Shown here: positions 3,001 to 54,757 of the stretch, one piece after another
How positions within the stretch are numbered: the first letter of the stretch is position 1
Layout of the letters: each line of letters begins with the position of its first letter
Origin: Candidatus Omnitrophota bacterium
Lineage (GTDB): Bacteria; Omnitrophota; Gorgyraeia; Zapsychrales; Zapsychraceae
Assembly: GCA_023247445.1 (NCBI GenBank)
Contig: JAHFGL010000004.1
Location: forward strand, 72,968 to 136,967
Length of the DNA: 64,000 nucleotides
Reading direction: 5' to 3'
Position numbers and translations under genes: made by a program
The notes under the pieces: generated by a model
What the model was told of the DNA's origin: nothing
What the model saw: the letters and a program-made list of their open reading frames with translations, nothing else
The model's database searches: none

Positions 3001-4580
3001 TTAAACAATTTATGAAACAGTATGTGGCTTTGATGAAGATGATTATGGTACATCATGTGGATGGATATATTAATCCTTGGGATGGTAATGCGATGACGGA
3101 AACTTATGGTGGATTTTTTAGAGGCCAATCTTTTTATTTGCCCCATGCCGTTGATACGGAATTTTATCAATATGCCTCAAGTGGGCAGACAAATACTGCA
3201 ATAGCGGAATCATCGGCTCAAGATTTTATCAGCGTCAAAGATGGATTGGTGCCGCAAACTGACGAACGTACTCAGCGAGCAGAATTGTTAGGAATTGTTC
3301 AATCGAGTTTAACTACTTCTGTTGGCTCAAGAGGACGGGTTCTTGCTCAAGGCTCGGTGGGGCGCAACACCGATTTGCCGGGGAAATTTGATTTGGATTT
3401 GTTAGGAGTTTTCAAAAACAGTTTTAATCCGACACAGGAGGGAGAAAAAATAATCGCTGCTTTAAAGAGTAAATTTGAAGAACGAGGATATACCATTAAC
3501 AACATTAAACAGAGACCACATAATAGTCATCAATGGTTGATTTCATTTATTGTCTATGAAAAGAGTGGTCGGCCATTAACTAAAGTGGAGATTACCCTTC
3601 GGCAAGAAGGAAAGGTTTATCCTGATCTATTTAACGCTCAGATGAATCAAATTCAAGAACAATTTTCTCTGGCTGGTCAAGAAGCGACTCTTTCAGACAT
3701 ACGTTTTATGAAACATTTGTTACAAGAAGGGATTGAATCTTACAAATGGTTTCATGGAGGGTTAAGTGGGATTGGGGCGGAGCAGCTTATTATTCAGTCC
3801 GGCGGAGTGGAACAAAATGGATGGAAGATTAATGGACAAGGGTCTTTTGCTAAAGCCATGAAGTTGATCTACTCCATTGGATATGATCAACAGAATAAAA
3901 CGATTCGTCCTGTTAGCGAAGTGATCAATTCTTTTCAAATTTATAATATGGATGGAAGTAATCTGATGCAAAGTCTAAACGATTGGAGTTGGCGTCGTTT
4001 GGTTCATGCGGCGCGAGTTTACACAGAGGGCAAGGCGCAAGGCACCACATTTAGTGATCCTGAGGCATTAAGGTATAACTTGTCCGACGCTATTAAATAT
4101 CGAAAAGGATTCTTTAGAGGTTACGAATTAGAAATGGAAAATCATATAGGCGATTCTTTAGCTAACAGTAGTTTTGTGTTCGAAAGAGTTGGAGCTAATC
4201 GATATTACGTTTTTGTTACAGATCAGGCTGAGGCGCGAAGGTTTGAGCAAGGAGAGTTTTCTCAGTCTATTAAAAATACAGCTGATCAGGCTTTGTTAAC
4301 TAAAGCGGGATCAGCGGCTATCGATGAGGCAACTGGAACGGCTCCTGTTGGTGCAGATATTGATAGAAAAGGGGGTATCGATTTTGATATCAACAAGATC
4401 GATTTGTTTATCCAGAATGATGGAGCGCCGATTCAGTTTGAATTTGATCCTGCCCAATTGAAAGATTTTGAAGTCGATGGTTTTACTCCGCTTATTATCA
4501 AAATCGAACCCATTCCCAGCCTTCCTTTATTTTTGGGTTCTTTAAACCCGGAAGAGCAGCAAACGGCACTTATTAATTAA
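3..4580 (+). CDS. Very large multidomain protein, 5'-truncated at the window edge. It contains an internal GT-B (GT4-like) glycosyltransferase domain. Overall function unknown.
   Basis: The reading frame is open from position 3 with no upstream stop. The TTG at 27 has no RBS, so the gene probably continues off-window. Residues around aa 560-720 (IDLFFAGRVTEDKG...GFPIVSRD...) resemble the C-terminal half of GT4 glycosyltransferases. The rest is helical repeat-like sequence with no recognisable family. Confidence 0.55.
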   Translation, partial: QPIKLIDALLYLAVTQKKQEALDHLISIVRSRDQIKGVDEKVKERIVTELTKINDPSKELLSALMSILADDTVSSELRLPCVRTLHKVYSRNPKQLTLGLYFMVYDNYSTDKHDISVGLYSAEVLARYNQMEQQGELELRRMLIDRNFTAVKAALAQNRFTPEAVAQAILLNNLNNIVVQTTGLIEDVKKADVKNRKGLMDGMVSIRDKLQGIVRPFSLTDWESSLTSCGISGLNLNQFGFRSVGNGVIIPTVFDVLLSTYRGSAEVDSIHNTYLTHAITTAIIHYANKGGENARSDGAEGFNAFHEFDQGALNLLGENNRRKDDHVTLAFSYPNDKPMPEYTRKRTMLLRDRTIMEILLQLGQWQAKERKAKQNIFKLLKLLTEGKVAKQKLDELINVFKAQLDILRSQCGLNKAYFDFLFGYINDSFFDNLRKAYQPQRDNGEILHRLLQSAMTGFHVVKKSPRQGIREVTDKHSWIDSHIMLGRKHRAPLTLLTYLGNEEYIRKYTYDDVDLSDKMDFSVPVVAVPAVATLARAPLVGPDLAAATVAAQPNADKTIDLFFAGRVTEDKGASDFLLVLSDIQAKYKANGITVRGHFLGAVEDSFKQQLQNLAFANNITHLEFHGPYSPEDFVLTLNRLNRPNCIFVHTLGLVTKEVMAMGFPIVSRDTMADRGTYKVAENQYRQAIEDLIDHPEKREALTAYARQEAERLYGSRQWLQTMFDVVERVTGRKVNDRFRASFSFSGFGYGKHGVNEYYNKFFRYLAKLQGVQSEVAVVSMQQRQFMQAQFPSSMFVDGVFEQSQLQEVNTYQHIGTHKKGTVPSDAVIRQQFLPALTRLIKAIQSVDLDAKNIFKVTNQSSQMTQEALEAMVQMQEYFVKGGYDVEKTMLHPLVEEVMKNIFPGSDGKFKGLQANMVSFDKRDKPLDHFSKLITLMYMLAQPMPDGKDVSFTMQLFPPILDIVHHRQGGPPVIYVEHTRLGYNERAVIKSIDDGKYPGHVKQFMKQYVALMKMIMVHHVDGYINPWDGNAMTETYGGFFRGQSFYLPHAVDTEFYQYASSGQTNTAIAESSAQDFISVKDGLVPQTDERTQRAELLGIVQSSLTTSVGSRGRVLAQGSVGRNTDLPGKFDLDLLGVFKNSFNPTQEGEKIIAALKSKFEERGYTINNIKQRPHNSHQWLISFIVYEKSGRPLTKVEITLRQEGKVYPDLFNAQMNQIQEQFSLAGQEATLSDIRFMKHLLQEGIESYKWFHGGLSGIGAEQLIIQSGGVEQNGWKINGQGSFAKAMKLIYSIGYDQQNKTIRPVSEVINSFQIYNMDGSNLMQSLNDWSWRRLVHAARVYTEGKAQGTTFSDPEALRYNLSDAIKYRKGFFRGYELEMENHIGDSLANSSFVFERVGANRYYVFVTDQAEARRFEQGEFSQSIKNTADQALLTKAGSAAIDEATGTAPVGADIDRKGGIDFDINKIDLFIQNDGAPIQFEFDPAQLKDFEVDGFTPLIIKIEPIPSLPLFLGSLNPEEQQTALIN

Positions 4581-4781
4581 GTCATTTCTGGAGTATGATC
4601 GACGGCGCATATCCCGTTATCATTAACATCCAATCCGCCCCAAATTTTCTTATGCTGCTGGGAATCAATCAACAGGAGAAAGAAGACAGTTTAAGTTTAG
4701 TACACTAACCCCCTTAGCCTGTCCTAGTTTGTTCTAGTCTGTCCTCTTGCGCAATATTATATATGATGTTAAAGTTTGCCC

Positions 4782-5495
4782 ATGAACATTAAAAGAATTC
4801 TCCTGTTTTTAAGCATTATAAGTTTAGTTGTTATTCCTCTTCATCAAGCCGAGGCGTTGGTCAACGGCGGTTTTGAGTCGGGGTTCACAGGCTGGACGAC
4901 AGCCGGGGACGTGACGATTGACACCTCTTTATTTGGCAGCGGCCCAACGGCAGGTTTACAAGAAGCCCGTCTTAAAACCAATGGCCCAACAGAACAAACC
5001 CTCAGTCAGTTACAATCATTCTTTTCATTACCCGCAGGAACATTAAATGGTTTAGGTAATGGTAATGTTGATGAAGGTTCCGCTATTAAACAGACCTTTG
5101 CAGCCAATGCTGGTGATGTCTTATCATTTGATTGGAATTTTTTAACCAGACAAACAACCCCCGATGTTCTTAATGATTTTGCTTATGTTGTTTTAAATGG
5201 CCAGGCGATAACCTTAGCCAATACACATTCGACGTTTTTCCCGACAGCCACAACTTATTTTCACGAAACGCATTTTCAAACCTACACTTATAATATTCCA
5301 ACAACAGGTAATTTTACGCTTGGATTTTCGGTCGTTGACGTTGGCATCCCTGGCAATCATGGCAGAATAATTTCAGCTCTTGAGCTTGATAATATTCAAC
5401 TCGTAACCCCTTCATCGCCCGTCCCTGAACCAGCAACGGTTCTTTTGCTGGGAAGTAGCTTTCTTGGCATGATGGGTTTTAGAAGAAAATCATAA
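4782..5495 (+). CDS. PEP-CTERM domain protein, a putative exosortase substrate and secreted protein.
   Basis: N-terminal signal peptide (MNIKRILLFLSIISLVVIPLHQAEA). The C-terminus is PVPEPATVLLLGSSFLGMMGFRRKS, which is a PEP motif plus a TM helix and an Arg-rich tail. This is the canonical PEP-CTERM sorting signal. An ATG at 4782 is preferred over the TTG at 4776. Confidence 0.75.
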   Translation: MNIKRILLFLSIISLVVIPLHQAEALVNGGFESGFTGWTTAGDVTIDTSLFGSGPTAGLQEARLKTNGPTEQTLSQLQSFFSLPAGTLNGLGNGNVDEGSAIKQTFAANAGDVLSFDWNFLTRQTTPDVLNDFAYVVLNGQAITLANTHSTFFPTATTYFHETHFQTYTYNIPTTGNFTLGFSVVDVGIPGNHGRIISALELDNIQLVTPSSPVPEPATVLLLGSSFLGMMGFRRKS

Positions 5496-12538: not shown

Positions 12539-12574
12539 AGCAAAGTTTCTTACTGCTCTTTTGGATGAATAAAA

Positions 12575-12720
12575 TTTTCTATGTGGTCTCTCATAAGTTT
12601 TTGGGGAGTTAAAAGGAAATCCTGTACCAGTCAGGAACGGTCCCGCCGCTGTATCTAGGGAAGTCAAGCCTAGGAGTCAGAATACTGCCATATAGTTAGT
12701 CAATTAACTGCGCGCGACAG
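12575..12720 (+). promoter_or_regulatory. Cobalamin (adenosylcobalamin) riboswitch aptamer, Rfam RF00174-like.
   Basis: The leader contains ...AAAAGGAAATCCTG...AGTCAGGAACGGTCCCGCCGCTGTA...AGTCAGAATACTGCC.... This matches the conserved B12-element core (GGTCCCGCC(A/G)CTGT B12 box and the AGTCAG..CTGCC 3' strand). It sits directly upstream of the btuB/btuF/btuD/btuC-like genes, which is the classical genomic context. Confidence 0.7.
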
Positions 12721-12763: not shown

Positions 12764-12801
12764 CCCAATCGAAAATAACTTCGATTGGGATTTTTTATTT
12801 T
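12764..12801 (+). terminator. Intrinsic terminator that acts as the riboswitch expression platform.
   Basis: A perfect 9-bp stem, CCCAATCGA (12764-12772) paired with TCGATTGGG (12781-12789), with an 8-nt loop. It is followed by ATTTTTTATTTT and lies immediately before the AAGGAGG RBS and GTG start of the receptor gene. Confidence 0.75.
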
Positions 12802-12814
12802 AAGGAGGATTAAA

Positions 12815-14800
12815 GTGAAGAAGATTATTTGTATTGTTTTTTGTTTGTTGTTAATGAGTGTGGCTACAGTTAAAGCAGAAGAGGCCGCTGAAGATTTAGG
12901 TAATATTGTTATTACTGCCAGCCGCATGGCGCAATACGATTATAAGGTGGCGGGGAATGTGACCGTCCTTGACCGTAAATATATCGAGGCCTCTAACGCA
13001 CAGAACATTCCCGATCTACTCAAGCAGGGATTGGGCGTGCATGTGGTTGATAACAGTTCCACTAAAACAACCACGATTGATATTCGCGGATTTGGTGACA
13101 CTGCTTCGCGAAACGTTTTAGTTTTAGTCAACGACCGTATTTTAAATACCGTTGATATCTCCAGTCCTGACTTAACCCAAATTCCACTGAGCTCTGTTGA
13201 ACGGATTGAAATTATCCGTGGAGCAGGATCTGTTCTTTACGGAGATCGGGCGGTTGGTGGAATTGTGAATATCATTACTAAAAAAGGAACAGGGCCTTTA
13301 ACGGGACGTTTCGGAACTTATTTTGGCAGTTACGATCGCCGGGCAACCGATGTGGAAGTCTCTGGATCTAAGAATAAACTCGGATATTATTTTTACTCAA
13401 AATACAATGATGATCATGGTTATCGTCAAAATAGCGATGTCCTTTCCAAAGATTTTAAAACTCGCCTTGATTACGATTGGTTGCAAAAGATCAAAGTGGA
13501 TGTGGACTACTCCTATCACGAAGATCAATATGGGTTCCCAGGTGGACTCAGTGGGGCTAATTTATCTGCCATGGGCCCACGGGCTACTACGACACCGAAT
13601 AATTTTGCAAGAAGCAAGGATAGCAGTTTAAAAACAGGTTTTGCCATTACTCCTTGGTTGCAAGATATTTATTATGGTCAATTTGTTCTTGATCTTTATT
13701 TACGAGACCGTGATGTGTTTGATAGTTTTTCTGGATTTGATACCGGCCGTGGCACACGAACAACGGGTATCACCGGTAAATATGTTTTTGATCATACGAT
13801 TTTTGATAAGCAATTTAATTTTGTCACAGGTGTCGATATTTATGATCATGAAACAGATATCCAGGGAAGCGGCAGCAATACCGATGATCTGACGATATCA
13901 AGAACAGATTTTGGTGTTTTTGGTTTTGCAGAATATGAAGCCCTAAAAAATCTTTTTGTTAATGGCGGCGGTCGTTACTATCAAGCTAAATATGCCTTTA
14001 GCCAACGTAACGGTGTAGCTGTCGATGAGAGGCAAAAGCCCGACGTTTTGGTTTATATGGGCGGATTAAAGTATGAATATGCGAAGGGTTCTAATGTGCA
14101 TGCTAGCGTACAACGAACATTTCGTTTCTTAGCGACCGATGAATGGTATAGTTCTTTCTCGGGAACTCTTAACACGGATTTAAAGCAACAAAAAGGGATC
14201 CAGTATGAAGTCGGTCTTAAACATAATTTTGCTGATAAGGTTACTTTTACGGTGACTCCTTATTGGATTGATAATCAGGATGAAATTTATTTTGATCCAA
14301 GCAACTTTGTCAATACAAATTATGATCGAACCATAAGACGGGGAGTTGAAATTGGACAAGAAACTAAGCTTTCAAAATTGATGCCTATCCCTTTTGTAGA
14401 TGAATTAAATTTCATCACCAATTATAATTTGCAAAAAGCCCAATTTAAGGGAGGGGCTAATGATAAAAAAGATATTCCACTGGTTCCACATCAACAGTTT
14501 AGCGGAGGATTTTTAACAAGATTCTTAGACCATTATAATTACTCCGTGATGGGCAACTATGTTGGCGCGCAGTTTGCTATTAACGATTTAGGCAACGTTA
14601 GTCCAAAGATTGAGCCATATTTTACTCTGGATACTAAACTCAGTTATGAATTGCCTAATTGGGAAGTTTATGGTGCAATTAATAATATTTTTAATCAACA
14701 ATATTCATCCACGGTTGTTTATTCGACCGGTAGCGGGGCACAAAGTTTTTATCCATCCCCTGGACGTAATTTTAACGTAGGGGTTAATGTGAAGTTTTAA
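12815..14800 (+). CDS. btuB: TonB-dependent outer-membrane receptor, a BtuB-like cobalamin/corrinoid receptor.
   Basis: GTG at 12815 with a strong AAGGAGG RBS. Features are a signal peptide, a TonB-box-like NIVITASR, a plug domain and a C-terminal beta-barrel ending in an aromatic residue (VKF). It lies behind the cobalamin riboswitch. Confidence 0.85.
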   Translation: MKKIICIVFCLLLMSVATVKAEEAAEDLGNIVITASRMAQYDYKVAGNVTVLDRKYIEASNAQNIPDLLKQGLGVHVVDNSSTKTTTIDIRGFGDTASRNVLVLVNDRILNTVDISSPDLTQIPLSSVERIEIIRGAGSVLYGDRAVGGIVNIITKKGTGPLTGRFGTYFGSYDRRATDVEVSGSKNKLGYYFYSKYNDDHGYRQNSDVLSKDFKTRLDYDWLQKIKVDVDYSYHEDQYGFPGGLSGANLSAMGPRATTTPNNFARSKDSSLKTGFAITPWLQDIYYGQFVLDLYLRDRDVFDSFSGFDTGRGTRTTGITGKYVFDHTIFDKQFNFVTGVDIYDHETDIQGSGSNTDDLTISRTDFGVFGFAEYEALKNLFVNGGGRYYQAKYAFSQRNGVAVDERQKPDVLVYMGGLKYEYAKGSNVHASVQRTFRFLATDEWYSSFSGTLNTDLKQQKGIQYEVGLKHNFADKVTFTVTPYWIDNQDEIYFDPSNFVNTNYDRTIRRGVEIGQETKLSKLMPIPFVDELNFITNYNLQKAQFKGGANDKKDIPLVPHQQFSGGFLTRFLDHYNYSVMGNYVGAQFAINDLGNVSPKIEPYFTLDTKLSYELPNWEVYGAINNIFNQQYSSTVVYSTGSGAQSFYPSPGRNFNVGVNVKF

Positions 14801-14818
14801 GTTAGGACAGAAATAAAA

Positions 14819-15724
14819 ATGATGAAGAAGATTGTTGGGATATTGCTGTGCTTGATTCTATTTGGATTCGGGAATCTGCCTGCGATAGCCCAACAATCTT
14901 CGGTTGTTCCTTTCCCAAAATATCAACGTATTATTTCTCTTGCTCCTTCGGGTACCGAAATTCTCTTCGCCCTTGGGTTAGGGGATCAAGTCGTCGGTGT
15001 AACCCGCTATTGCCGTTTCCCTCCAGAGGCTCAACAAAAAACAATCATTGGAACATTTTTGGATACTAATTTTGAATTAGTCTATCGGCTTAATCCAGAT
15101 TTGGTTGTTTTACTTAATACCGAAATGGGCCCTAAATTAAAGTTGGAACAAATGGGGTTTAATGTCTTGATGCTTGAGACAAATAAAGTAAGCGACGTCA
15201 TTGAGGCGATTACCAGAATCGGTTCGTATTGTGATCGCAAGGCACAAGCCACCGAGATTACGGATCGCATCAAGGAAAGAATTCAGGATATCCAATCTAA
15301 AACGAAGAGTTCATCGCGCCCTCGTGTGTTGGTGACCTTTGCCCGGACGCTAGGTGAAGGGAATATTAATAATGTTTATGTGGCTGGGACAAAATCTTTT
15401 TTTCATGATATTATCACAATCGCTGGCGGTCAAAATGCGTATAATGGATTAGAGGCCATTGCTAGTCCCGTTGTTTCCGCCGAAGGGGTTTTACAGATGA
15501 ATCCCGATGTTATTATCGAAGTTCTGTCAGATTTAAAAGAAACAAATTTAAATCCAGCTGAGGTGATCAAAGATTGGGATACCTTGCCTGAACTTAAAGC
15601 TTATCAAAATAAACAAATTTATATTTTCACCGATGATTATTTAGGTATTTCTGGCCCGCGCATTACGCAAACCTTGGATCGCATCGCCCGATCTATCCAT
15701 CCTGAAATCAAATGGGATCCTTAA
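14819..15724 (+). CDS. btuF: ABC transporter periplasmic substrate-binding protein of the BtuF/FecB cluster (cobalamin/siderophore type).
   Basis: Signal peptide, then ISLAPSGTEILFALGLGDQVVGVTRYC, typical of the BtuF/FhuD class III binding proteins. Confidence 0.8.
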   Translation: MMKKIVGILLCLILFGFGNLPAIAQQSSVVPFPKYQRIISLAPSGTEILFALGLGDQVVGVTRYCRFPPEAQQKTIIGTFLDTNFELVYRLNPDLVVLLNTEMGPKLKLEQMGFNVLMLETNKVSDVIEAITRIGSYCDRKAQATEITDRIKERIQDIQSKTKSSSRPRVLVTFARTLGEGNINNVYVAGTKSFFHDIITIAGGQNAYNGLEAIASPVVSAEGVLQMNPDVIIEVLSDLKETNLNPAEVIKDWDTLPELKAYQNKQIYIFTDDYLGISGPRITQTLDRIARSIHPEIKWDP

Positions 15725-16515
15725 AGATGAAAAAAAACATCGTTACGATTCAGGGATTTTCTTTCTCTTACGATCAAAAGAAAGTTTTAGATCAGATTAC
15801 TTGCTTCATTGACGAAGGAGATTATGTCTCGATTATTGGCCCCAATGGCGCGGGTAAATCAACTTTACTCAAATGTTTAAATCGTATTCTTACGAGTCAA
15901 GAAGGTGAAATTCATTTATTTGGTCAAAAGCTGTCGGGCTATAAACAAAAAGAGCTAGGAAGATTGATTGGATATGTGCCGCAAGGCCGTGAACAACTTT
16001 TTCCGTACACAGTTTATGAATTTGTGATGATGGGCCGCTATGCGTATGTTCCGGCTTTTTCTTATACCACCGCCGAAGATCATCGGGCTGTGGAACAAGC
16101 TCTTTCGATGACAGGCATTATGGATTTAGCAAAGCGCCCTGTAAATGCCTTAAGCGGCGGTGAACGGCAAAAGGTTTATCTGGCCGGAGCTTTAGCGCAA
16201 GAACCGAAAATTCTTTTATTAGATGAGCCGACAACCCATTTAGATCCTAAGCATCAAGTGGAGATTCAAAAGATGATTTGGGATATTTCATCGCAATGCG
16301 GTATGACGGTTATTCATGTGACGCATGACCTGCAGCATCTATGTCTTGGGCCGCAGAAAATTTTAGCCTTAAAAGAGGGGCGTTTAATATTTTCTGGACC
16401 GTCTGAGGAGATATTAACACCGGCTAATTTAAAAACAATTTTTGGAACAGCATTTGTTTTTCTTCCATTTCCATCCAGCGGCAAGAAATTCATCGTTGCC
16501 GAAGCCATGCTATGA
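15712..16515 (+). CDS. btuD: ABC transporter ATP-binding protein, BtuD/FecE-like.
   Basis: Walker A (GPNGAGKST), the ABC signature (LSGGERQKV) and Walker B (ILLLDEPT). An alternative start at 15727 (MKKNIV) is also possible. Confidence 0.85.
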   Translation: MGSLKMKKNIVTIQGFSFSYDQKKVLDQITCFIDEGDYVSIIGPNGAGKSTLLKCLNRILTSQEGEIHLFGQKLSGYKQKELGRLIGYVPQGREQLFPYTVYEFVMMGRYAYVPAFSYTTAEDHRAVEQALSMTGIMDLAKRPVNALSGGERQKVYLAGALAQEPKILLLDEPTTHLDPKHQVEIQKMIWDISSQCGMTVIHVTHDLQHLCLGPQKILALKEGRLIFSGPSEEILTPANLKTIFGTAFVFLPFPSSGKKFIVAEAML

Positions 16516-17534
16516 AAATAATTGTGTTAGATAAAAAGAATAAATTGGCGATATTGTTAATTTTACTTCTGGGATCATTAGTTGTGATCTTCACCTCGCC
16601 ATTTGCAGGCTCAAAATTGATTTCATTAAATAACATTTTTAGCCTTGAACCGGGGAGCAGTGATTTTAAAATATTTTGGGTCATCAGGATTCCGCGTGTC
16701 TTATTGGCTTATATGGTGGGTGCGATTTTGGCGCTTAGCGGAATGGTTTTTCAAGCGGTTTTTCGCAATCCCTTAGTATGTCCATTTACCCTCGGGGTTT
16801 CATCCGGGGCTTCTTTTGGTGCAGCGATTTACATTGCCTTAGGATTTTCATTTACCCTTTTGGGAATTTCAGGGATTTCTTTCTTCTCGTTTTTAGGAGC
16901 AGTTTTTGCCATTGCCATCGTTTGGTATTTATCGAGAATGAAACAAGGTTCATCTGTTGCTAAAATGCTTTTAGCTGGGATCGCTGTGAGCTTTTTCTTT
17001 TTAAGTATCATTATGTTTATTCAGTTTATCAGTGGGGTTATCCAATCACTGCGAATCTCCCGATGGCTGATGGGAGGGATCTACGCATTTGGATATGATA
17101 CGCTTATTCAGGCCAGCATTATCGCTTTCCTGGGACTTTTTATTATTTGGTATTTTTCTCATGATTTAAATTTATTTACAACCGGTGAAGAGTTAGCCAT
17201 AAGCCGTGGCGTTGATGTCAAATTGACAGTAACAATTTTATTTTTCTTAATATCGATTATGATTGGCGGGATTGTGGCCATTTGCGGACCCATTGGCTTT
17301 GTTGGGATCATTGCGCCGCATATTTGTCGTCTCTGGATTGGTCCTGACCATCGATATTTAACCCCAGCAACATTTTTATTCGGCGGTTTATTTTTAGCCC
17401 TGTGCGACACTTTAGCCCGCAGCTTACTGCCACCTACAGAAATTCCCGTGGGTGTTATTACCGCCATTTTGGGTGGACCATTCTTTCTGTGGCTCCTACA
17501 CGCCAAATTTTCCGATTCGAGTATTTCTTTGTAA
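16512..17534 (+). CDS. btuC: FecCD-family ABC permease, BtuC-like.
   Basis: About 9-10 TM segments with FecCD hallmarks (IRIPRVLLAYMVGA, GxxxAxxGxI). The ATGA overlap with btuD indicates translational coupling. Confidence 0.85.
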   Translation: MKIIVLDKKNKLAILLILLLGSLVVIFTSPFAGSKLISLNNIFSLEPGSSDFKIFWVIRIPRVLLAYMVGAILALSGMVFQAVFRNPLVCPFTLGVSSGASFGAAIYIALGFSFTLLGISGISFFSFLGAVFAIAIVWYLSRMKQGSSVAKMLLAGIAVSFFFLSIIMFIQFISGVIQSLRISRWLMGGIYAFGYDTLIQASIIAFLGLFIIWYFSHDLNLFTTGEELAISRGVDVKLTVTILFFLISIMIGGIVAICGPIGFVGIIAPHICRLWIGPDHRYLTPATFLFGGLFLALCDTLARSLLPPTEIPVGVITAILGGPFFLWLLHAKFSDSSISL

Positions 17535-20924: not shown

Positions 20925-21023
20925 TACCGTTAATCTAAATTGGCCTTAGAAAATAACGTCAACTAAACCAAGTTGGCCAAACAATTTACAATTTTAACAA
21001 GTATTAACGAAAGGACAGAACAA

Positions 21024-21320
21024 ATGAAAAAAGTCAGTATGTTAACCATCGCCCTAATGCTTATCTTAGGCACAACAACCTTTGTTAAAGCCGAGGGTGA
21101 TGAAAAGGCCGTTGCTGCCCAGGGAGCTTATACAGATGAAGGTTATGCTGTTGGGCAAGATGCCATGATGGATGCAGGGGCAGAGATGATGAATGGTACC
21201 GAAGAAAACATGATGGAAGGTATGGAAGAGAATATGAATGCCATGGAAGAAAACATGAATGCCATGATGGAAGATAACGCAGGAATGAATGACGGCATGA
21301 TGAAGGAAAGTGGTTATTAA
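21024..21320 (+). CDS. Secreted methionine-rich low-complexity protein, a putative periplasmic Cu(I)/metal-binding protein.
   Basis: ATG at 21024 with an AAGGACAG RBS. A signal peptide (MKKVSMLTIALMLILGTTTFVKA) is followed by MEENMNAM-type Met/Glu/Asn repeats (about 25% Met). Confidence 0.55.
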   Translation: MKKVSMLTIALMLILGTTTFVKAEGDEKAVAAQGAYTDEGYAVGQDAMMDAGAEMMNGTEENMMEGMEENMNAMEENMNAMMEDNAGMNDGMMKESGY

Positions 21321-21345: not shown

Positions 21346-21945
21346 ATGCGATTTAGAAAACAATTATTAAGCCTGGCAGCATCTTTCTTGGTTGTTGGGT
21401 TTTTAGCACAACCTCTCTTGGCTGCGGATAAATATGAGATTGATTCCGTCCATTCCAATATAGGCTTTTCTGTTAAACATTTAATGGTTAGTACAGTATT
21501 AGGCCATTTTAATGACTATACAGGGGCCATCGAGTTTGATAAGAGCGATGATGCTGCCTTTAAAGCTGATGTGACGATTCAAACTCAGAGTATTGACACC
21601 AACAATGAGAATCGAGATAAGCATCTTCGTAATGCGGATTTTTTTGATGCTGAGAAATATCCAACGATAACTTTCCAAAGCAAAAAACTTACGGCCGCAG
21701 GTGATGGTTATGAAATTGTAGGGGATCTTACGATGCATGGTGTAACAAAAGAGATCACCATCCCTGTAACTATTGCTGGGCCTGTTAAAGGTCCTTCAGG
21801 TGCTGACGTCATTGGTCTTTCAGGAACGACCACGATTAATCGACAAGATTTTGGTATTTCCTGGAATAAAGGTTTGGATAGTGGTGGACTTGTTGTTGAA
21901 GATAACGTTAAGCTTATTATTGATATAGAAGCACATAAAAAGTAG
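21346..21945 (+). CDS. YceI-family periplasmic polyisoprenoid-binding protein.
   Basis: A signal peptide plus YEIDSVHSNIGFSVKHLMVSTVLGHF, which is the YceI lipocalin-like signature. Confidence 0.8.
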   Translation: MRFRKQLLSLAASFLVVGFLAQPLLAADKYEIDSVHSNIGFSVKHLMVSTVLGHFNDYTGAIEFDKSDDAAFKADVTIQTQSIDTNNENRDKHLRNADFFDAEKYPTITFQSKKLTAAGDGYEIVGDLTMHGVTKEITIPVTIAGPVKGPSGADVIGLSGTTTINRQDFGISWNKGLDSGGLVVEDNVKLIIDIEAHKK

Positions 21946-21963: not shown

Positions 21964-21998
21964 AAAGGCAGCCTTCAAAAGAGGCTGCCTTTTTTATT
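21964..21998 (+). terminator. Rho-independent terminator.
   Basis: GGCAGCCttcaaaagaGGCTGCC followed by TTTTTTATT, immediately after the YceI stop. Confidence 0.7.
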
Positions 21999-22479
21999 GA
22001 GCGCGAAAAGAAACTGGCGTAAGCTCGTGGATGAAGCGCCTCCGAGATTACAAAGATCGAGGACAAACGTAGCTTGTAATACAAGACGGTCAGAATGCCA
22101 CGTCCGTAATGGCGTGGAAATTTACTTTTAAACCCTTATTATAGAGAAATTTTGTAGTTTTCAGGTAGCGGTTTCTTTTATACAAGATGAAATTGCTTTA
22201 TCGACGACAATTAGATTAAAAAGTAGATTTATTGGTTTAATAAAAATCATGAAAATTCTTTAGATTTTATATTACGACAGAAAATAGATTGTATACTTAG
22301 GATGTAGATAAAATTTGAGGAAAATCCTAATTTTTAGGAGCCCTGTGAAGTTACAGGGGGGCAAACCTAGGGAAACCTAGGGACCCACGCGCCACGTAGG
22401 GCGCGTGGCCATGAAATTACGTTAAGTTCATGGGCAAAGCCAAAAGGATCCTTCGGGATGGCCAGGCTACCGAATCAAA

Positions 22480-25400
22480 ATGAATATTTTTAGATTAAAC
22501 TTAGATAAAAGTAAAAACAAATTACTAAGCCAGAATAGCTTTAGCCGTGCTATCCTGGCATCTTTTTTGGTGACGAAGATTAGAAGAAACATTTTCTTAC
22601 TGTTTTACTTCTTATCCTTGACCCATGGGGCTTTAGCTTTGCCTATTGAGCCTTTGGAAGATAAGACTGTGAGCTGCCAGGCGAATCAACAGCCGTTTTA
22701 TGGACAATGTATGGATACGCTCAAAATTTTTGGCCAGCGTAGTATTAAAGAAATTGTTCCTGATTTAACAACGGGCCGCTCGCAAGGGACGCATGGCCCA
22801 GGAGTCCTTGTTGATCGAAGAAAACGCCCTAATATATTTTATGTTTTTGATACAGGGAATAATCGTGTTTTAGGGTTTCGTTCTTTAGGACAATGTGCCT
22901 TAAGCCAGCAATATTGTACGAATAATACCGACTGTCCACAGAGTGGTGATCAATGTCTTCTTGATCTTAGGGAAGCTGATCTAGTTTTTGGTCAACCAGA
23001 TAGGAGATCTTCAAGCTGTAATGGCGACAGTAATTTAGGGTATTTTAAAAAGCCGTCAAAAGAAAGTTTGTGTTTGATGGATATTCCAACTAATACCAAT
23101 TTTGCTGAACAGTGGACGCATATTAATTTTGATGTTGATCAAAAGGGTAATCTCTATATTCCAGATGTCTATAATAACCGTGTGTTACGTTACAATGAAC
23201 CTTTTTGCCAGGGAAGTAGTTGTCCTTCGGGTGCTGGAGATACGATAGCTGATATGGTTTGGGGACAAAACGACTTTAATTTTAATGAACGTAATCGACC
23301 AGTTTCTCTGACAACATTAGAATTGTCACAGCGATTAGGATCTTCACGCGGAGTGTCTATTGATCTTGCCGGAAACCTTTGGATCGCGGATATCCATAAT
23401 CATCGCGTTCTGCGGTTTGCTTTTAATTCAAAAGAACCAAATTTAGTTATAGGACAAAAGGATTTTTATTCCAGGTCATCAGAATGCCGTTTAGACAATT
23501 TAACGCTAGATAAACTTTGTCGTCCTACATTAGCTAAAATAAATCCGAATGATAATCGTTTGTATGTTATTGATGAAATTGATTTTGAAGGATTCCGCGC
23601 TCGAATCCTTGTTTATGATCCGCCTTTTACGACGGGAAAACCAGCATCTCGTGTTATTGTTCCCGAGGATCCTTCCTCTGAAAGTTATTTTACAGCTAGC
23701 ACATTAATGTTTAATACATTTTATAAAGAGGGAAGCTGTCAAGCAGTGGAAATGATTGTCAGCGAACACTCAAGAGTTGATGGCCCACAAAAGACGTTAA
23801 TGCTTAATAAAGATGGAGAATTTATCAATTATTTCGGATTGCAAAGTTCATGGCCGTCAGGAAATATGGGGTTAGATAATGATAAAAATGTGTATGTTAA
23901 TTTGGAAACAGATTTAATGAATACGGTATGGCGTTATTATTTAGATGGAAGTGAAGGATCTTGTAAAACTAATCTGCTGGATAACTTTTTTGGAAATAAT
24001 GAAAAAAGCCAGCGAACAATTCATGGCTCTATAGGAATCGCTATTCATGAAGGGAATTTAATTGTTAATGATAAAAAGAGGACGTTAGTTTGGGAAAATT
24101 ATAAAAACAAAATGGATTTTGGGAGTCCCGCGGATCAAGTTGTTGCCACTCAATCAACGGGTCGTGCTCATTTTGCTATTGATGATCAAAATAGATTTTG
24201 GACAACCAATGAAACGGGACAATTAGCGGTGTATCAACTTCCTTTAACAAAGGATAGTGTTCCTTTAAATGCAGATGTTAAGCTTAGAGATTTTTATACT
24301 ACTTCCGGCCCTACTTTTTATAAGGATCCGATAGATTCTACTAAAAATGCTCTTTTTATTCCTGTTGGACGGAGAATATATCGTATACGAGATTATAATA
24401 ATTTTCAGGACAGACTTCTTGAGGATGTTTATTTTGGTGGGGATCCTAGACAAGATGGGTGCAGCACGCTACACCCAATGTTCTTATGTAATCCACTCTC
24501 AGTTGAATTTGATAAGTTGGGAAATATGTATGTCCTTGATAGTAATTATGAATGTCATGGAAATAATAGTATTGTGGTCTATCCTAATTCGCAAGTTAGG
24601 GGTCCTATAGGTCCTATGGAAGCTCATAAAATTTTTATCAGAGATTCTTTTTATAAACCCAAAAGTTGTGATAGGGCTCCGCAGGGAATATCCGTTCCTG
24701 TGGCCATTGCTTTTAATGATAAGAATAATATGGTTGTTGGCAGAGATGGTTATGGCAATGATCAATTTGGCAAAAGACCAGAAGTTCGTCCTTTGGAACA
24801 ACTCGCCTTTTATAAAAATCCTTTAGAACAATACGCGGATGGCAGTTATGTCATGGGTCAAAATCCAGACGCGTTTATACGCTATCCAATGGGGGCTTCA
24901 GGGAGCATGGTCTTTAACGACAATGGACATCTTGTCATCCAGGATCATACTTGGAGCAGGGTCTCTGTGATTGATATCTTTGAGAAAGGTAGCGCGGGAA
25001 AGTACAAGTGGTTAATTCCCGTTAAACGAGATGATGATGGCGACGGCATCATTAATTTTGATGATAATTGTCCGTATATTGCCAATAATAACCAAAGCGA
25101 TGTTGATATAGATGGTAAAGGCGATGTCTGTGATAACGTCTTTGTTCCAGTCAAAAGCCAATATGATACAACTTTTAGAACATTCGTAAGATTTAGGTTA
25201 AATGTCATTAATCCCGACTTCCCGCATAGTTTATTTTTTAAAAAATCTGGAGATGAATATGGTACTTTAGATGAAAAAACAGGAATGTTTCAACTGGTTT
25301 TTGGTGATAATCCCCCCACGCAAAAAATTTTTAACTTTCGGTTTGAGATTACTGATGGACATCAGTTAAATGTTTCTCAAAATGTAACAGTTAACTATCA

Positions 25401-26772
25401 TTCAACATTGCCTTATTTTAATGTAATACAAAATTCAGACGCTATCGTTGGGCAGGCACATACTTTAAAGGTCGGAACCAACCGACAAAATGCTTTTTTA
25501 TCTCCTAAGGACGAGGATCTTTTGCCAGGGGCTACGAGAATTGTCGATCCCACTGAGATGACCATCAATTGGATCCCTACAAGTGTTCCTGCGGTTAACC
25601 CAATTGTTATGTTTAGAGTACTTAGTGAGAGCAAAGAGACAATAGAGTTCCCTGTTGAAATTAAATTTGCCAGGCCCCAATTAAGTAATTTGGAATATTC
25701 ATATCACGCGGTTTTAGACAGAAAGCTTCATATCCCATTATATGTTATTAATCGAGATGTGAATTATCCGGTTACGTTTTCAATGGAGGGAGCCCCACAA
25801 GGCGCAACGCTTAACGCACAGACGGGTGTCTTTGAGTTTACGCCCACATGGCAGGATTTAGGTAAAGAATATGTAATAACCTTTAATGCTAAAGATAATC
25901 ATAAAATTAATGATTATAAATTCTCTGTTATCAGAGTTGATTATGATATGCCTCCTCAAATGCAACTTACAGGAAGCACAACAGCTATTGTCTCGCAGCC
26001 TATGCAGTTTACGGTTCATATTTATGATTCAGATAATCTGGAAGATTTAAAGATTTTAGCTCCAACAGCGGAGAATCTGCCACCGGGAGCAACATTGACA
26101 ATAGTCAAATCAAGTGATCATTATCGTATGGTTGTGGATTGGACTCCAAGAGAATATTCTACGAATACTTTTGAGATTCCTTTTCGTGCCAATGACGGGC
26201 ATATGGACGTAGAAAAAATAGTTAAGGTTCGATTTGCCGCCGCGCCTAAAATTACTCCGATTGAAACTAGGGAATATGTACTCGGCAACATTAAGAAAAT
26301 TCCATTTATAGCTAGGGATGTTAATGATGATATAACAGAATTTTCAGTTGAGGCTTTTAATCCGCAAAGTAATTTAAGTCTTACATTAACTGACGTTATA
26401 CAGCCTATTAACAATCTAATTTTTACTCATGAATTCAAATGGAAACCGCCCAGTGGAGGTTTGTGGAAGATAATCATTACAGCTAAAGATAAAACAAACC
26501 TAACAACTAAGTCAGAGTTTTATCTTCAACAAACAGGCTGTTTTATCGCAACAGCCGCTTATGGATCAGCGATGGTTAACGAGGTGGGGGTTTTGCGCAA
26601 TTTGCGTGATGACGTGCTATTAAAATTCAAAGCAGGCAGGAATTTTGTAAGTTGGTATTATCAAACAAGTCCTCCGGTTGCTGAAGAATTAGCTAAACAT
26701 CAAAAGCTTCGCTTAGTTATTCGGGCGACTTTAATGCCGCTAATTAAGGTAAGCTTGTGGTTACAAAATTAA
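22480..26772 (+). CDS. Giant surface/extracellular protein with NHL repeats, thrombospondin type-3 Ca-binding repeats, Ig/cadherin-like domains and a conserved C-terminal anchoring-type motif.
   Basis: 1430 aa. NHL-like propeller blades (NNRVLRY, HNHRVLRF). A TSP3 repeat (DDDGDGIINFDDNCPYIANNNQSDVDIDGKGDVCDN). Repeated roughly 100-aa beta-rich modules. The C-terminal TGCFIATAAYGS...LRNLRDDVL... motif plus a hydrophobic tail suggests a C-terminal sorting/anchor domain. Confidence 0.7.
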   Translation: MNIFRLNLDKSKNKLLSQNSFSRAILASFLVTKIRRNIFLLFYFLSLTHGALALPIEPLEDKTVSCQANQQPFYGQCMDTLKIFGQRSIKEIVPDLTTGRSQGTHGPGVLVDRRKRPNIFYVFDTGNNRVLGFRSLGQCALSQQYCTNNTDCPQSGDQCLLDLREADLVFGQPDRRSSSCNGDSNLGYFKKPSKESLCLMDIPTNTNFAEQWTHINFDVDQKGNLYIPDVYNNRVLRYNEPFCQGSSCPSGAGDTIADMVWGQNDFNFNERNRPVSLTTLELSQRLGSSRGVSIDLAGNLWIADIHNHRVLRFAFNSKEPNLVIGQKDFYSRSSECRLDNLTLDKLCRPTLAKINPNDNRLYVIDEIDFEGFRARILVYDPPFTTGKPASRVIVPEDPSSESYFTASTLMFNTFYKEGSCQAVEMIVSEHSRVDGPQKTLMLNKDGEFINYFGLQSSWPSGNMGLDNDKNVYVNLETDLMNTVWRYYLDGSEGSCKTNLLDNFFGNNEKSQRTIHGSIGIAIHEGNLIVNDKKRTLVWENYKNKMDFGSPADQVVATQSTGRAHFAIDDQNRFWTTNETGQLAVYQLPLTKDSVPLNADVKLRDFYTTSGPTFYKDPIDSTKNALFIPVGRRIYRIRDYNNFQDRLLEDVYFGGDPRQDGCSTLHPMFLCNPLSVEFDKLGNMYVLDSNYECHGNNSIVVYPNSQVRGPIGPMEAHKIFIRDSFYKPKSCDRAPQGISVPVAIAFNDKNNMVVGRDGYGNDQFGKRPEVRPLEQLAFYKNPLEQYADGSYVMGQNPDAFIRYPMGASGSMVFNDNGHLVIQDHTWSRVSVIDIFEKGSAGKYKWLIPVKRDDDGDGIINFDDNCPYIANNNQSDVDIDGKGDVCDNVFVPVKSQYDTTFRTFVRFRLNVINPDFPHSLFFKKSGDEYGTLDEKTGMFQLVFGDNPPTQKIFNFRFEITDGHQLNVSQNVTVNYHSTLPYFNVIQNSDAIVGQAHTLKVGTNRQNAFLSPKDEDLLPGATRIVDPTEMTINWIPTSVPAVNPIVMFRVLSESKETIEFPVEIKFARPQLSNLEYSYHAVLDRKLHIPLYVINRDVNYPVTFSMEGAPQGATLNAQTGVFEFTPTWQDLGKEYVITFNAKDNHKINDYKFSVIRVDYDMPPQMQLTGSTTAIVSQPMQFTVHIYDSDNLEDLKILAPTAENLPPGATLTIVKSSDHYRMVVDWTPREYSTNTFEIPFRANDGHMDVEKIVKVRFAAAPKITPIETREYVLGNIKKIPFIARDVNDDITEFSVEAFNPQSNLSLTLTDVIQPINNLIFTHEFKWKPPSGGLWKIIITAKDKTNLTTKSEFYLQQTGCFIATAAYGSAMVNEVGVLRNLRDDVLLKFKAGRNFVSWYYQTSPPVAEELAKHQKLRLVIRATLMPLIKVSLWLQN

Positions 26773-26980
26773 CAATAAATATTTATTACTCCCCGAAGGG
26801 ACAGAATGCCACGGGCTTGCCCGTGGATGAATGTTGAGAAGCCGATATAATAGAATGAGCGGGATGGAAAATTGATTTTATGGTCATGGAGTATATCGGA
26901 CGCAATATTATATCGTTTGGACAGCAAAATATCGGTGACCAATCCTGAATCCTGGGATAGTAAGTTATTGAGAATATCTT

Positions 26981-27604
26981 ATGATGTTATCAAAACGATT
27001 TAGCAAAGTCATTATTCCACTAGTTGCGTTCTTTTTATTGTTCCCGTGCGTTATCTTTGCCCAGCAGAAATACACAGTTGATCCTACCCAGTCGACCATT
27101 GAAGGTTCCATTAAATATACCTTGATTGGAAGATATAAGGCTCATTTCGAAGAATTCACCGGAGGTATTCATTTTGATCCCCAGAATCTTACGAAGACTT
27201 CGGTTGTCTTAAAGGTTAAAACAAAAAGCATTAAATCAAGATTTCCTAAGCTGGATCGTATGGTTCTTTCTCCACGGTTACTTAATGCCCATGAATTTCC
27301 AGAAATGATATTTGAAAGCAAGTCGATTGAAGAAAGAAATGGGAAATATTATGTTACGGGAATTTTTAATTTACGCGGGATTAAAAAAGAGATGACGTTG
27401 CCTTTTTCTATTGAAGGACCATTTATTGATAAAAAGGGGCGGGGATATTTGATCGCCAGCGGTAAATGGTTAATTAATCGTAAAGCCTTTAATTTTGTTT
27501 GGAATAAGTTTCTTGATAAGGGAGGGATTATTGTTGGCAATACGATTACCCTTGACTGGAAAATGATGGCTTTTAGAGAGAATCCTGGGCCAAAGAAGAA
27601 GTAA
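26981..27604 (+). CDS. YceI-family protein, second paralog.
   Basis: Signal peptide plus VDPTQSTIEGSIKYTLIGRYKAHFEEFTGGIHFDP, the YceI signature. Confidence 0.75.
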   Translation: MMLSKRFSKVIIPLVAFFLLFPCVIFAQQKYTVDPTQSTIEGSIKYTLIGRYKAHFEEFTGGIHFDPQNLTKTSVVLKVKTKSIKSRFPKLDRMVLSPRLLNAHEFPEMIFESKSIEERNGKYYVTGIFNLRGIKKEMTLPFSIEGPFIDKKGRGYLIASGKWLINRKAFNFVWNKFLDKGGIIVGNTITLDWKMMAFRENPGPKKK

Positions 27605-53080: not shown

Positions 53081-54757
53081 ATGATAAAGACAAAAAAACT
53101 TCGTAAATTATTTAACGACAAAGAAGTCATTTATGTGATGGGTGCGCATAATGGATTAAGCGCCAAACTAGTCGAGCAAAGTGGTTATGATGCTGTTTGG
53201 GCCAGCGGGCTTGAGATATCAGCTTCTTACGCGGTTCCCGATGCCAATATTTTAACGATGACTCAGTACTTAGAAAAGTCATCAGAGATGAATGAAGCGG
53301 GATCTCTACCTATTGTCAGCGACTGTGATACGGGTTATGGAAATTCGAATAATGTTATTTATCTTGTTAAGAAATATGAATCCGCCGGAATTGCTGCTAT
53401 TTGTTTGGAAGATAAACTTTTTCCTAAGGTGAATAGTTTTATTGGTGGTCGGCAAGAGTTGGCCCCCATTGCAGAATTTGTCGGAAAGATCATGGCGGCA
53501 AAAAATACTCAACGTGATGAAAATTTTATGGTGATTGCTCGTGTTGAAGCTTTGATTGCGGGTTGGGGGGAACGCGAAGCTTTATTAAGAGCGGAAAAGT
53601 ATGTTGAAGCAGGCGCCGATGCGATTTTAATTCATTCGAAGAGAACGGATCCTGATGAGATTATCAGCTTTGCCAAGAAATGGGACAAACGTGCTCCTTT
53701 GGTTGTGGTTCCGACCACTTATCCCTCTTTAATGCAGAATTTTTCTGACACAGATTTATCTGGTTTAGGAATCAAAATGGTCATTTTTGCCAATCAAGGC
53801 ATTCGTGCTTCAATTAAAGCGATGGGAAAAATTATGTCAGATATGCGACAGTCTCGAGGGGCTGTTTCCGTTGAGAAAGAAGTCGCTACATTAAAAGAGG
53901 TTTTTGAATTGCAGGGAATGATCCAAATGAAAGATAGTGAAAAGAAATTCCTTAAATCTGAAAATAGTGATTTCAACGTGATTATTCTTGCGGCCGGAGC
54001 CCCTCAGCATGGAGATGATCTTGAGCCTTTGCTACGTGATCGTCCTGTCGCGCTTCTCGATATTAATGGCCAGTCGCTTATTAAACGTAACCTTGAAACA
54101 TTATCGCGATTTAGCGTCAATGAAGTTTGTGTTGTGACTGGTTATTGTAGTGAACAGTTTAATTTACCGGACGCAACTTTAATCCACAACCCAGATTACG
54201 AAGGTAAGAATGTTTTACATTCTATCGTCGCGGCTGAAGAGAAATTAAAAGGCAAGACACTACTGGCTTATGCGGATATTCTTTTTGATCGGGGCATTAT
54301 TGAAAAGCTTTTAAAGTGCGATGAAGACATTGTTTTGGTTGGTGATGCTACATTTAAGAAAGTGAATATGAATAACCGCCGAAAAGACTTTCTTGTGACC
54401 GATGAGATGCCCAAGATCACGTATCGCTCGATTGATCTTAATAAATTAAAATGTATCCGAAAAATTGGTGGTGATACTCTTCCTGAAGAAGCGCATTATG
54501 AATTTGTGGGATTGGCGCTTCTTAGTGATCGTGGGTCAAAGATATTTAAAGAAATGTATCACACCATGGCTAAAGAAAATAAGATGGAGATTCTTAACGA
54601 CAAAATTACAATTAACGATGTCTTTCAGGAAATTATTAATCGAAATATCCCCATATCAATGTTAGAGGTTAATTCGGGCTGGATTGAGATTCAGACATTT
54701 GAAAATTATAAAACAGCTTGTTATTTGCTTTCTCCACAGACAGAAGGAACCAGATGA
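53081..54757 (+). CDS. pepM: Phosphoenolpyruvate mutase (PepM) fused to a C-terminal nucleotidyltransferase domain.
   Basis: The N-terminal ~290 aa have the PepM-specific EDKLFPKVNS motif of the ICL/PEPM superfamily (distinct from isocitrate lyase), plus SDCDTGYG. The C-terminal ~250 aa (VIILAAGAPQHGDDLEPLL...) is an NTP-transferase fold. Confidence 0.8.
   Translation: MIKTKKLRKLFNDKEVIYVMGAHNGLSAKLVEQSGYDAVWASGLEISASYAVPDANILTMTQYLEKSSEMNEAGSLPIVSDCDTGYGNSNNVIYLVKKYESAGIAAICLEDKLFPKVNSFIGGRQELAPIAEFVGKIMAAKNTQRDENFMVIARVEALIAGWGEREALLRAEKYVEAGADAILIHSKRTDPDEIISFAKKWDKRAPLVVVPTTYPSLMQNFSDTDLSGLGIKMVIFANQGIRASIKAMGKIMSDMRQSRGAVSVEKEVATLKEVFELQGMIQMKDSEKKFLKSENSDFNVIILAAGAPQHGDDLEPLLRDRPVALLDINGQSLIKRNLETLSRFSVNEVCVVTGYCSEQFNLPDATLIHNPDYEGKNVLHSIVAAEEKLKGKTLLAYADILFDRGIIEKLLKCDEDIVLVGDATFKKVNMNNRRKDFLVTDEMPKITYRSIDLNKLKCIRKIGGDTLPEEAHYEFVGLALLSDRGSKIFKEMYHTMAKENKMEILNDKITINDVFQEIINRNIPISMLEVNSGWIEIQTFENYKTACYLLSPQTEGTR

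Follow-up and report, generated by a model that had tools for sequence, protein, structure and literature searches.

We investigated a giant gene (22480..26772, forward strand) in a stretch of 64,000 nucleotides from a Candidatus Omnitrophota bacterium (assembly GCA_023247445.1, contig JAHFGL010000004.1, positions 72,968 to 136,967), hereafter called the window. Its product is a modular, Sec-exported protein of about 150 kDa, built, in this order, of a signal peptide, an NHL beta-propeller module of about 790 aa, one thrombospondin type-3 (TSP3) repeat, an Ig-like stalk of about 460 aa and a C-terminal CFI-box-CTERM domain of the subtype that has no transmembrane (TM) helix. From its sequence, the tail is securely identified as the CFI-box-CTERM domain (NF041770), a family that is named and catalogued but whose function is unpublished, and of which the window protein is a further member. 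We propose, with a probability of roughly 40%, that the CFI-box works as an autonomous module for tethering or assembly, with the participation of its invariant cysteine. The CFI-box is among the larger named protein domains without an assigned function, and no publication on it was found in literature searches on the domain name, the accession and the motif. For the gene itself, our contribution is mostly annotation, and its product would probably be a secreted propeller/Ig-like protein regulated by cyclic di-GMP (c-di-GMP) and ending in a CFI-box. For the domain, the constraints gained are that it is a predicted folded helical domain, that it exists in two forms, with or without a membrane helix, and that it is not confined to exported proteins.

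A search of the NCBIfam C-terminal models matched the tail to NF041770 over the full length of the profile (positions 1-69 of 69), scoring 87.4 bits with the whole protein and 92.7 bits with the isolated tail, above the cutoff of 40. The first residue of the domain is the invariant Cys1354 (codon 26539-26541), directly preceded by Gly1353, and the domain sequence begins with CFIATAAYGS, within a 'GCFIATAAYGS...' stretch. Only one copy of the CFI-box is encoded in the window. Pfam has no model for this tail, and a match to Exotox-A_cataly (16 bits, below cutoff) was rejected as spurious. A preliminary description of this DNA had pointed to a conserved Cys motif at the end of the protein, distinct from PEP-CTERM. 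Both points were upheld, as alignments of 7, 24 and 122 sequences show no variation at the Cys, the Phe and further positions, and NCBI has its own model for the tail, 'CFI-box-CTERM'. Moreover, the motif is not part of the last Ig-like domain: it belongs to a conserved, autonomous C-terminal module. The window copy resembles the NF041770 family in its full-length match, its place at the extreme C-terminus and its Cys-Phe-Ile-Ala-Thr-Ala-Ala start; it differs as a shorter subtype (77 residues) without TM helix and basic tail, and nothing excludes its membership.

We then searched for the family with a profile built from the window tail and its six first matches, against 1.84 billion cluster representatives (50% identity). 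This search retrieved 29,098 representatives at E<=1e-3, including 18,602 at E<=1e-10. Among the 29,098, the CFI-box is almost always found at the extreme C-terminus, and the passengers to which it is fused are unrelated. Its taxonomic range includes haloarchaea, Hadesarchaea, Chloroflexota, Bacillota and Proteobacteria. The alignment of 122 sequences contains 11 invariant columns, i.e. the Cys and ten others (L, R, D, Y, S, P and R among them), and the window copy shares with the family the same invariant LR.(F)RD, YY..SPP.A and R positions. The residue that precedes the Cys is a Gly in 100 out of 151 sequences, with P, F, A, D, V, K and S also accepted at this position, and the linker before it is rich in Gly, Ser and Pro. 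In the window protein, Cys1354 is the sole Cys of the last 546 residues and the 21st, i.e. odd, Cys of the protein (18 are located in the NHL module and two in the TSP3 repeat).

The structure predicted by AlphaFold2 from the alignment of 122 sequences is all-helical: the CFI motif forms a short helical turn, after which come three helices (mean pLDDT 75, 81-91 in the core). According to this model, the CFI-box is an autonomous folded helical domain of about 70 residues, and not a short or tripartite sorting signal.

To describe the tails, we scanned genomes (one per species) and found at least 592 confirmed CFI-box loci, of which 80 were examined, giving 85 CFI-box genes. The examined loci are spread over Desulfobacterota, Nitrospirota, Gammaproteobacteria, Chloroflexota, Bacillota, Brocadiaceae, Spirochaetota, Methylomirabilota, Parcubacteria and Hadesarchaea; the cultured Geomonas oryzae S43 is among the hosts. 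In 65 of the 85 sampled tails, the box is followed by 'L(T/S)P(V/L)VY.(I/V)KYP', a hydrophobic helix (19-residue Kyte-Doolittle mean of 1.6-3.3) and an Arg/Lys cluster, for a total of 94-124 aa; these proteins are predicted to be membrane-anchored. The remaining 20 have no hydrophobic helix. A TM helix is also missing from 142 out of 147 tails in the set of the 150 top-scoring cluster representatives, most of which are Dehalococcoidia-like and have a fixed tail of 82 residues. The window tail counts 77 residues from the Cys to the end, with a maximum 19-residue Kyte-Doolittle mean of 1.42 and 13 residues after the last Arg; neither a TM segment nor a terminal basic cluster is present, as judged from hydropathy and sequence. 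The 'hydrophobic/basic tail' of the preliminary description was overstated, since the end of the protein is an amphipathic and not a membrane-spanning helix, which terminates in ...SLWLQN without any basic cluster. The proposed anchor thus holds for the 65 relatives with TM helix and basic cluster, but not for the window protein, which has no hydrophobic anchor. Its last helix is closest to the 'PLV.VSK.L' tails of Nitrospirota, Sulfurifustis and Acidiferrobacterales. A recent loss of the TM helix by a stop codon or a frameshift was considered and rejected: no hydrophobic coding remnant was seen by eye in the shifted frames after the stop codon, and 'PLIKVSLWL' aligns with the recurrent TM-less 'PLV.VSK.L' (L012, L032, L054, L065).

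Because the basic cluster comes after the TM helix, the TM-bearing tails are expected to adopt an N-out, C-in topology. In three loci from unrelated metagenome-assembled genomes (MAGs; L036 7613-11146, L075 548-2149, L080 9215-11017), the reading frame continues into a second signal-peptide-like helix with an AxA site, followed by an outer-membrane beta-barrel-like domain of about 210-260 aa (Phenol_MetA_deg in L036). This continuation is consistent with the predicted topology, and these genes could encode polyprotein-like fusions cut by signal peptidase. An outer-membrane beta-barrel was not retained as a general partner of the CFI-box, as it is confined to these three loci.

The carriers of the CFI-box are not restricted to exported proteins. 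In the genome sample, a signal peptide was detected in 54 out of 72 complete genes by a crude hydrophobicity test. At one extreme, stand-alone forms are composed only of a signal peptide, a linker and a CFI-box (haloarchaeal P0004-P0006, and P0091 with a lipoprotein signal). At the other extreme, several carriers have no signal peptide, as seen from a tblastn search of plasmids and phages: a fusion of a cold-shock domain (CSD), a zinc-ribbon-like CxxC...CxxC and a CFI-box on plasmid pBcp895-1 of Burkholderia cenocepacia, a TPR protein on the 5.2-kb plasmid pZS-8 of Acinetobacter lwoffii, a 139-aa protein adjoining a Cas4-like gene on an Acidovorax plasmid, an Mrr_cat + WYL protein on PL47 of Haloquadratum walsbyi, a 571-aa protein beside Hsp70 and AAA genes in Haliscomenobacter, and a zinc-ribbon/TPR/CFI-box protein on one unannotated Clostridioides phage-plasmid. 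A zinc-ribbon protein of Hadesarchaea is another case without signal peptide, and the cluster representatives include two Mrr_cat fusions (P0117, P0145) and a fragment of a Type ISP protein (P0152, Type_ISP_C). Since both signal-less carriers and stand-alone proteins exist, the CFI-box should have its own role, independent of export. Several identified carriers are cultured or plasmid-borne (Geomonas oryzae S43, gene at L053 6155-10303; A. lwoffii pZS-8, BVG18_RS17140; B. cenocepacia pBcp895-1, A3203_RS39185; and H. walsbyi PL47, HQ_RS14350). One apparent cytoplasmic Fe-S protein with both CFI-box and TM helix (L058) was discarded as an artefact, a masked run of N joining two open reading frames (ORFs). 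No association with tail fibres was seen in the phage search, so that a role as intramolecular chaperone is not supported. We also observed that four signal-less fusions on plasmids or the phage-plasmid (L201 3653-4234, L204 3218-4252, L203 3809-4228, L206 4176-5231) have restriction-alleviation, Cas4-like, toxin-antitoxin and AAA-ATPase genes as neighbours, a context typical of conflict systems.

We then looked for an enzyme that could recognize the tail. No sortase, exosortase, rhombosortase or type II secretion system (T2SS) component is encoded in the window, and the cognate enzyme expected nearby was thus not found among its genes. After clustering all ORFs from 79 CFI-box loci, no universally conserved neighbour emerged either. 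Secretin, GspE or GspF genes are located within the fetched flanks in 10 of these 79 loci, and are adjacent to the CFI-box gene in about half of these 10; in one of the loci (L004), a CFI-box subtilase directly follows gspDEF. This T2SS neighbourhood is a modest signal, corresponding perhaps to 4-5 independent events, and it suggests that some CFI-box members may be T2SS cargo. In four Geobacteraceae loci (L006, L053, L067, L076), we noted a recurrent order of pilM-N-O-P-Q, a gene for a small lipoprotein (about 190 aa, no Pfam match) and then the CFI-box gene, whose product is a large Ig-rich lipoprotein of 1000-1400 aa with a TM helix; aroC comes next in L006 only.

In the reading that we favour, the CFI-box would hold the C-terminal end of the fused protein to a partner or to other CFI-box copies, and would do so in any cellular compartment. 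The invariant and otherwise unpaired Cys would contribute via a disulfide, a metal shared between partners, or a thiol link of a different kind. For most relatives from Proteobacteria, Desulfobacterota and Nitrospirota, the added TM helix and basic tail would attach the unit to the cytoplasmic membrane, on its outer side. The TM-less window protein would be retained, if at all, via the CFI-box itself, and would otherwise be soluble in the periplasm or exported. This reading draws on the mobility of the module, as none of the 119 best passenger homologues of the window protein carries a CFI-box, and on its independence from compartment, since it is fused to signal-less CSD, Mrr_cat + WYL, Type_ISP_C, zinc-ribbon and TPR proteins. 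The membrane anchor appears to be an add-on, because it is present in some of the sampled tails and absent from the others. In addition, the C-terminal slot after the NHL module seems to exchange attachment modules, because homologues carry there dockerin (PF00404), SLH (PF00395), PKD or FlgD-Ig modules. By analogy with dockerin and SLH, this slot may generally carry an attachment module, which provides circumstantial support for an attachment role of the CFI-box; dockerin and SLH, however, have no similarity of sequence or fold to the CFI-box and are confined to exported proteins, unlike the CFI-box.

Several observations weigh against a tethering or assembly role. The invariant Cys of the cytoplasmic members cannot be a structural disulfide, so that a thiol role remains speculative, and a catalytic or ligand-binding role would account just as well for the many invariant polar residues. 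No solved structure was found for the CFI-box by sequence, and Foldseek of the model against the PDB revealed no similar fold. Moreover, the docking of TM-less copies on TM-bearing ones receives no support from tandem CFI-box genes of the same locus, where either all copies have the TM helix or all are devoid of it; the sole support for it is the presence of both types in one Acidiferrobacterales MAG (L007, L038).

The first rival explanation is that of a true sorting or processing signal, cleaved by a membrane enzyme near the Gly-Cys or the TM helix before transfer to a lipid or the cell wall, or hand-over to the T2SS. Like PEP-CTERM/exosortase (TIGR02595), LPXTG/sortase, GlyGly-CTERM/rhombosortase and MYXO-CTERM signals, the CFI-box is C-terminal on many unrelated secreted passengers, occurs in paralogous families, is preceded by a Gly-rich linker next to its invariant Cys, and has a TM helix plus a basic cluster behind it in most of the sampled relatives. 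Some of its loci also adjoin T2SS genes, in L004 and, after pilMNOPQ, in Geobacteraceae among others, and GlyGly-CTERM substrates are known for a neighbourhood of T2SS genes. However, these tripartite signals rely on a motif of 3-6 residues, whereas the CFI-box is a predicted folded helical domain whose motif lies about 70 residues from the membrane in TM-bearing members, and not beside the TM helix. About a quarter of the sampled relatives, and the window copy, have neither TM helix nor basic tail, and no cognate enzyme was found in the window or as a conserved neighbour in the 79 loci. The range from haloarchaea to Proteobacteria is a further difficulty, and we know of no sortase family that spans haloarchaea, Hadesarchaea, Chloroflexota, Bacillota and Proteobacteria. 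The presence of the box on signal-less proteins, and as a stand-alone secreted domain, also speaks against a dedicated export-sorting signal. We therefore consider this explanation unlikely, and for the window protein the evidence speaks against a tripartite sorting signal of the classic kind. Of the sorting/anchor interpretation given in the preliminary description, the conserved and autonomous C-terminal module stands, but the hydrophobic anchor does not, and the folded domain, the cytoplasmic carriers and the missing enzyme count against the sorting part.

A second explanation would be self-processing, in which the Cys attacks the carbonyl of the preceding Gly (N-to-S acyl shift), in the manner of intein N-termini, and releases the passenger or ligates it to a nucleophile, whatever the compartment. 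The Gly-Cys-Phe junction with its prevalent Gly, the position of the invariant Cys right at the domain boundary, the large number of invariant polar residues for so small a domain and the occurrence in cytoplasmic and secreted proteins alike are all in its favour. Hedgehog autoprocessing likewise occurs at a Gly-Cys-Phe site, and Hedgehog/intein Hint domains share with the CFI-box this passenger/domain boundary and the independence from compartment. Nevertheless, the Hint fold is a beta fold of about 140 residues, while that predicted for the CFI-box is all-helical and half as long, and no Pfam Hint or intein profile matches it at E<=1. The resemblance is a lead only. Residues other than Gly are tolerated before the Cys, and proteins made of a signal peptide and a CFI-box have nothing to release. 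Self-processing therefore seems very doubtful. Alternatively, the CFI-box might be a small domain that binds a ligand, a metal or a cofactor, or a regulatory domain, unrelated to localization or assembly, the TM helix being an independent addition. The invariant C, R, D, Y, Y and S positions, the stand-alone occurrences and the cytoplasmic carriers resembling conflict systems on plasmids and the phage-plasmid are compatible with such a role, but no resemblance to a known binding fold was detected (Pfam, PDB sequence search, Foldseek), and modules that stand strictly at the C-terminus of hundreds of unrelated passengers, behind a flexible linker, more typically serve in targeting or assembly. 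We judge this explanation improbable. A more far-reaching reading is that of a compartment-independent, cysteine-dependent C-terminal module, shared by about 29,000 clusters of Bacteria and Archaea, that would act through covalent tethering or processing at the Gly-Cys, or through assembly around a shared thiol or metal centre. The chances of this reading appear low; if true, it would represent a new anchoring or assembly mechanism, common to giant surface proteins and plasmid-borne nucleic-acid-binding proteins.

The features of the gene and of its surroundings are given in Table 1. The ORF was found exactly as first described, and its product is identical to a database protein (P0094) that forms a singleton cluster and is encoded on a contig of 138,246 bases.

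Table 1. Coordinates of the giant gene, its domains, its leader and its flanking elements in the window
Feature	Position	Strand	Basis
YceI gene upstream of the giant gene	21346..21945		
Intrinsic-terminator-like hairpin after the upstream YceI gene (12-bp stem, then a T run)	21964..21992	+	
Structured leader resembling a c-di-GMP-I (GEMM-I) aptamer	22350..22474	+	Rfam, fold z-score, metagenomic matches
Leader, GGCAAACC	22360-67		
Leader, GNRA hairpin UAGG-GAAA-CCUA	22368-79		
Leader, GGGAC	22380-84		
Leader, two inserted hairpins (49 nt together)	22385-22408 and 22409-22433		
Leader, GCAAAGCC	22434-41		
Leader, UUCG-capped hairpin (between GCAAAGCC and GGCUACCGAA)			
Leader, GGCUACCGAA	22465-74		
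ORF, 1430 aa, ATG start, including stop codon	22480..26772	+	ORF listing
Sec-type signal peptide, residues ~31-53	22570..22638	+	Read from sequence by eye
NHL-type beta-propeller module (~790 aa), residues ~59-849	22654..25026	+	Pfam, homologues, PDB matches
Thrombospondin type-3-like calcium-binding repeat, residues ~850-890 (profile match at about 848-891)	25027..25149	+	Pfam, NCBIfam, PDB
Ig-like stalk, cysteine-free, residues ~891-1350	25150..26529	+	
CFI-box-CTERM domain, residues 1354-1422 of 1430	26539..26745	+	NF041770, alignments, AlphaFold2
Last 8 residues KVSLWLQN, end of the final amphipathic helix	26746..26769	+	
YceI-like gene downstream of the giant gene	26981..27604		

The signal peptide shows an n-region (TKIRRN), an h-region (IFLLFYFLSL) and a c-region (THGALA), with a putative cleavage at ALA|LP; alternative in-frame starts are possible at a TTG (22567) and a GTG (22570). 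The NHL propeller that had been proposed is confirmed by an NHL repeat at residues 291-313 (PF01436, 25 bits for a cutoff of 20) and by PDB matches to the PknD and 'Pizza' NHL propellers. The TSP3 repeat is weak in Pfam (18.4 bits vs. a cutoff of 25) but matches thrombospondin-2 and COMP in the PDB sequence search (E 1.5e-13), which bears out this assignment as well. The 'several Ig/cadherin-like modules' of the preliminary description hold only in part: one is formally supported (He_PIG, PF05345, residues 1094-1146, 25759-25917; 28.9 bits for a cutoff of 24) and several are plausible from 'LPxGAT' signatures spaced about every 95 aa, but BLAST found no internal repeats in the protein.

Using the passenger alone (residues 59-1350) as a query, we retrieved 2836 homologues, which have only the N-terminal NHL module in common; the best ones share 33-41% identity over about 60% of the query. 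This module is a widespread stand-alone N-terminal unit, found in bacteria of the candidate phyla radiation (CPR), Chloroflexota, DPANN archaea and others. Many homologues end exactly at its boundary (...QDHTW.KVWVINL..DP.WL), and others continue with the C-terminal modules mentioned above. Besides, several NHL-module homologues (P0193, P0197, P0201, P0205, P0209, P0218, P0221, P0226, P0229, P0238) share a short conserved ending, '(V/I)YLPL(V/L)(L/M)R', frequently preceded by a linker rich in Thr and Pro; this ending may be another uncharacterised C-terminal signal.

The leader located just upstream of the giant gene is probably a c-di-GMP-I riboswitch of an expanded type. All the signature segments of this class (RF01051), together with its two flanking hairpins, can be read from the sequence in the canonical order (GGCAAACC, GNRA hairpin, GGGAC, GCAAAGCC, second hairpin, GGCUACCGAA), and the fold z-score is -4.47. 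The leader differs from RF01051 by the two extra hairpins inserted between GGGAC and GCAAAGCC. Its scores, 21.5 bits for 22350-22413 and 15.8 bits for 22422-22474, do not reach the gathering score of 35, which speaks against the assignment. Scanning metagenomes with a sequence pattern gave 120 matches, close to the number estimated for chance; the informative subset is formed by 23 non-redundant matches with a GNRA-capped hairpin. In 22 of these 23, a two-hairpin insert is present at the same place, with a median z-score of -4.26 vs. 0.11 for the other pattern matches (-4.6 for the insert in the window). Furthermore, 7 out of 17 tested sequences with such an insert pass the RF01051 gathering score at full length. 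With MAFFT and RNAalifold, only the GNRA hairpin was recovered from this subset, with covariation, and the inserted hairpins do not align by sequence. The leader suggests that expression of the giant gene may be coupled to c-di-GMP. As this coupling is usual for adhesin and matrix proteins, a c-di-GMP-controlled surface or matrix protein would fit the probable riboswitch.

The isolation of the gene, estimated at first at about 500 and 200 bp, was verified, with 534 bp of non-coding DNA upstream and 208 bp downstream, as were the YceI genes on both sides. The strong terminator-like hairpin in the 534-bp spacer indicates that the giant gene forms its own transcription unit. On both sides of the gene (22091-22117 and 26802-26828, forward strand), we also noted a short repeat, CAGAATGCCACG-(6-9 nt)-CGTGGA, which forms a CCACG/CGTGG hairpin. 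Its 12-mer is present in exactly 2 copies in the window vs. 0.26 expected, and 3 out of 100 shuffles reached two copies; it may be an element of the repetitive extragenic palindrome (REP) type or due to chance.

Elsewhere in the window, the PEP-CTERM previously reported on another protein was recovered (4776..5495; TIGR02595, 22.3 bits vs. a cutoff of 16). Directly upstream of this gene lies a very large ORF (27-4580, forward strand; at least 1517 aa), open at the left edge of the window and without any Pfam or NCBIfam match. The window also encodes metH, metF, a NuoF-like protein, a DsbD-like membrane protein, the two YceI proteins and glycosyltransferases. A cobalamin riboswitch (RF00174, 56.7 bits, 12567-12706, forward strand) precedes genes for a TonB-dependent receptor and a BtuF/C/D-like ABC transporter (12785-17534); because of the presence of this receptor and of the PEP-CTERM protein, the host would be a diderm. 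Between the DsbD-like and YceI genes, a small secreted protein (20973-21320, forward strand) has a repetitive C-terminal half rich in Met, Glu and Asn (MMEGMEENMNAMEENMNAMMEDN...) and could be a methionine-rich metal-binding protein, e.g. for copper. Finally, a long co-directional cluster (37359-60327, forward strand) combines nonulosonic-acid biosynthesis genes (NeuB, UDP-GlcNAc 2-epimerase, cytidylyltransferase, DegT aminotransferase, PglD-like acetyltransferase) with phosphonate biosynthesis genes (phosphoenolpyruvate mutase at 53081-54757, thiamine pyrophosphate-dependent decarboxylase, aminotransferase), two B12-binding radical SAM enzymes and a PhyH dioxygenase, which suggests that it may produce a phosphonate-decorated surface glycan.

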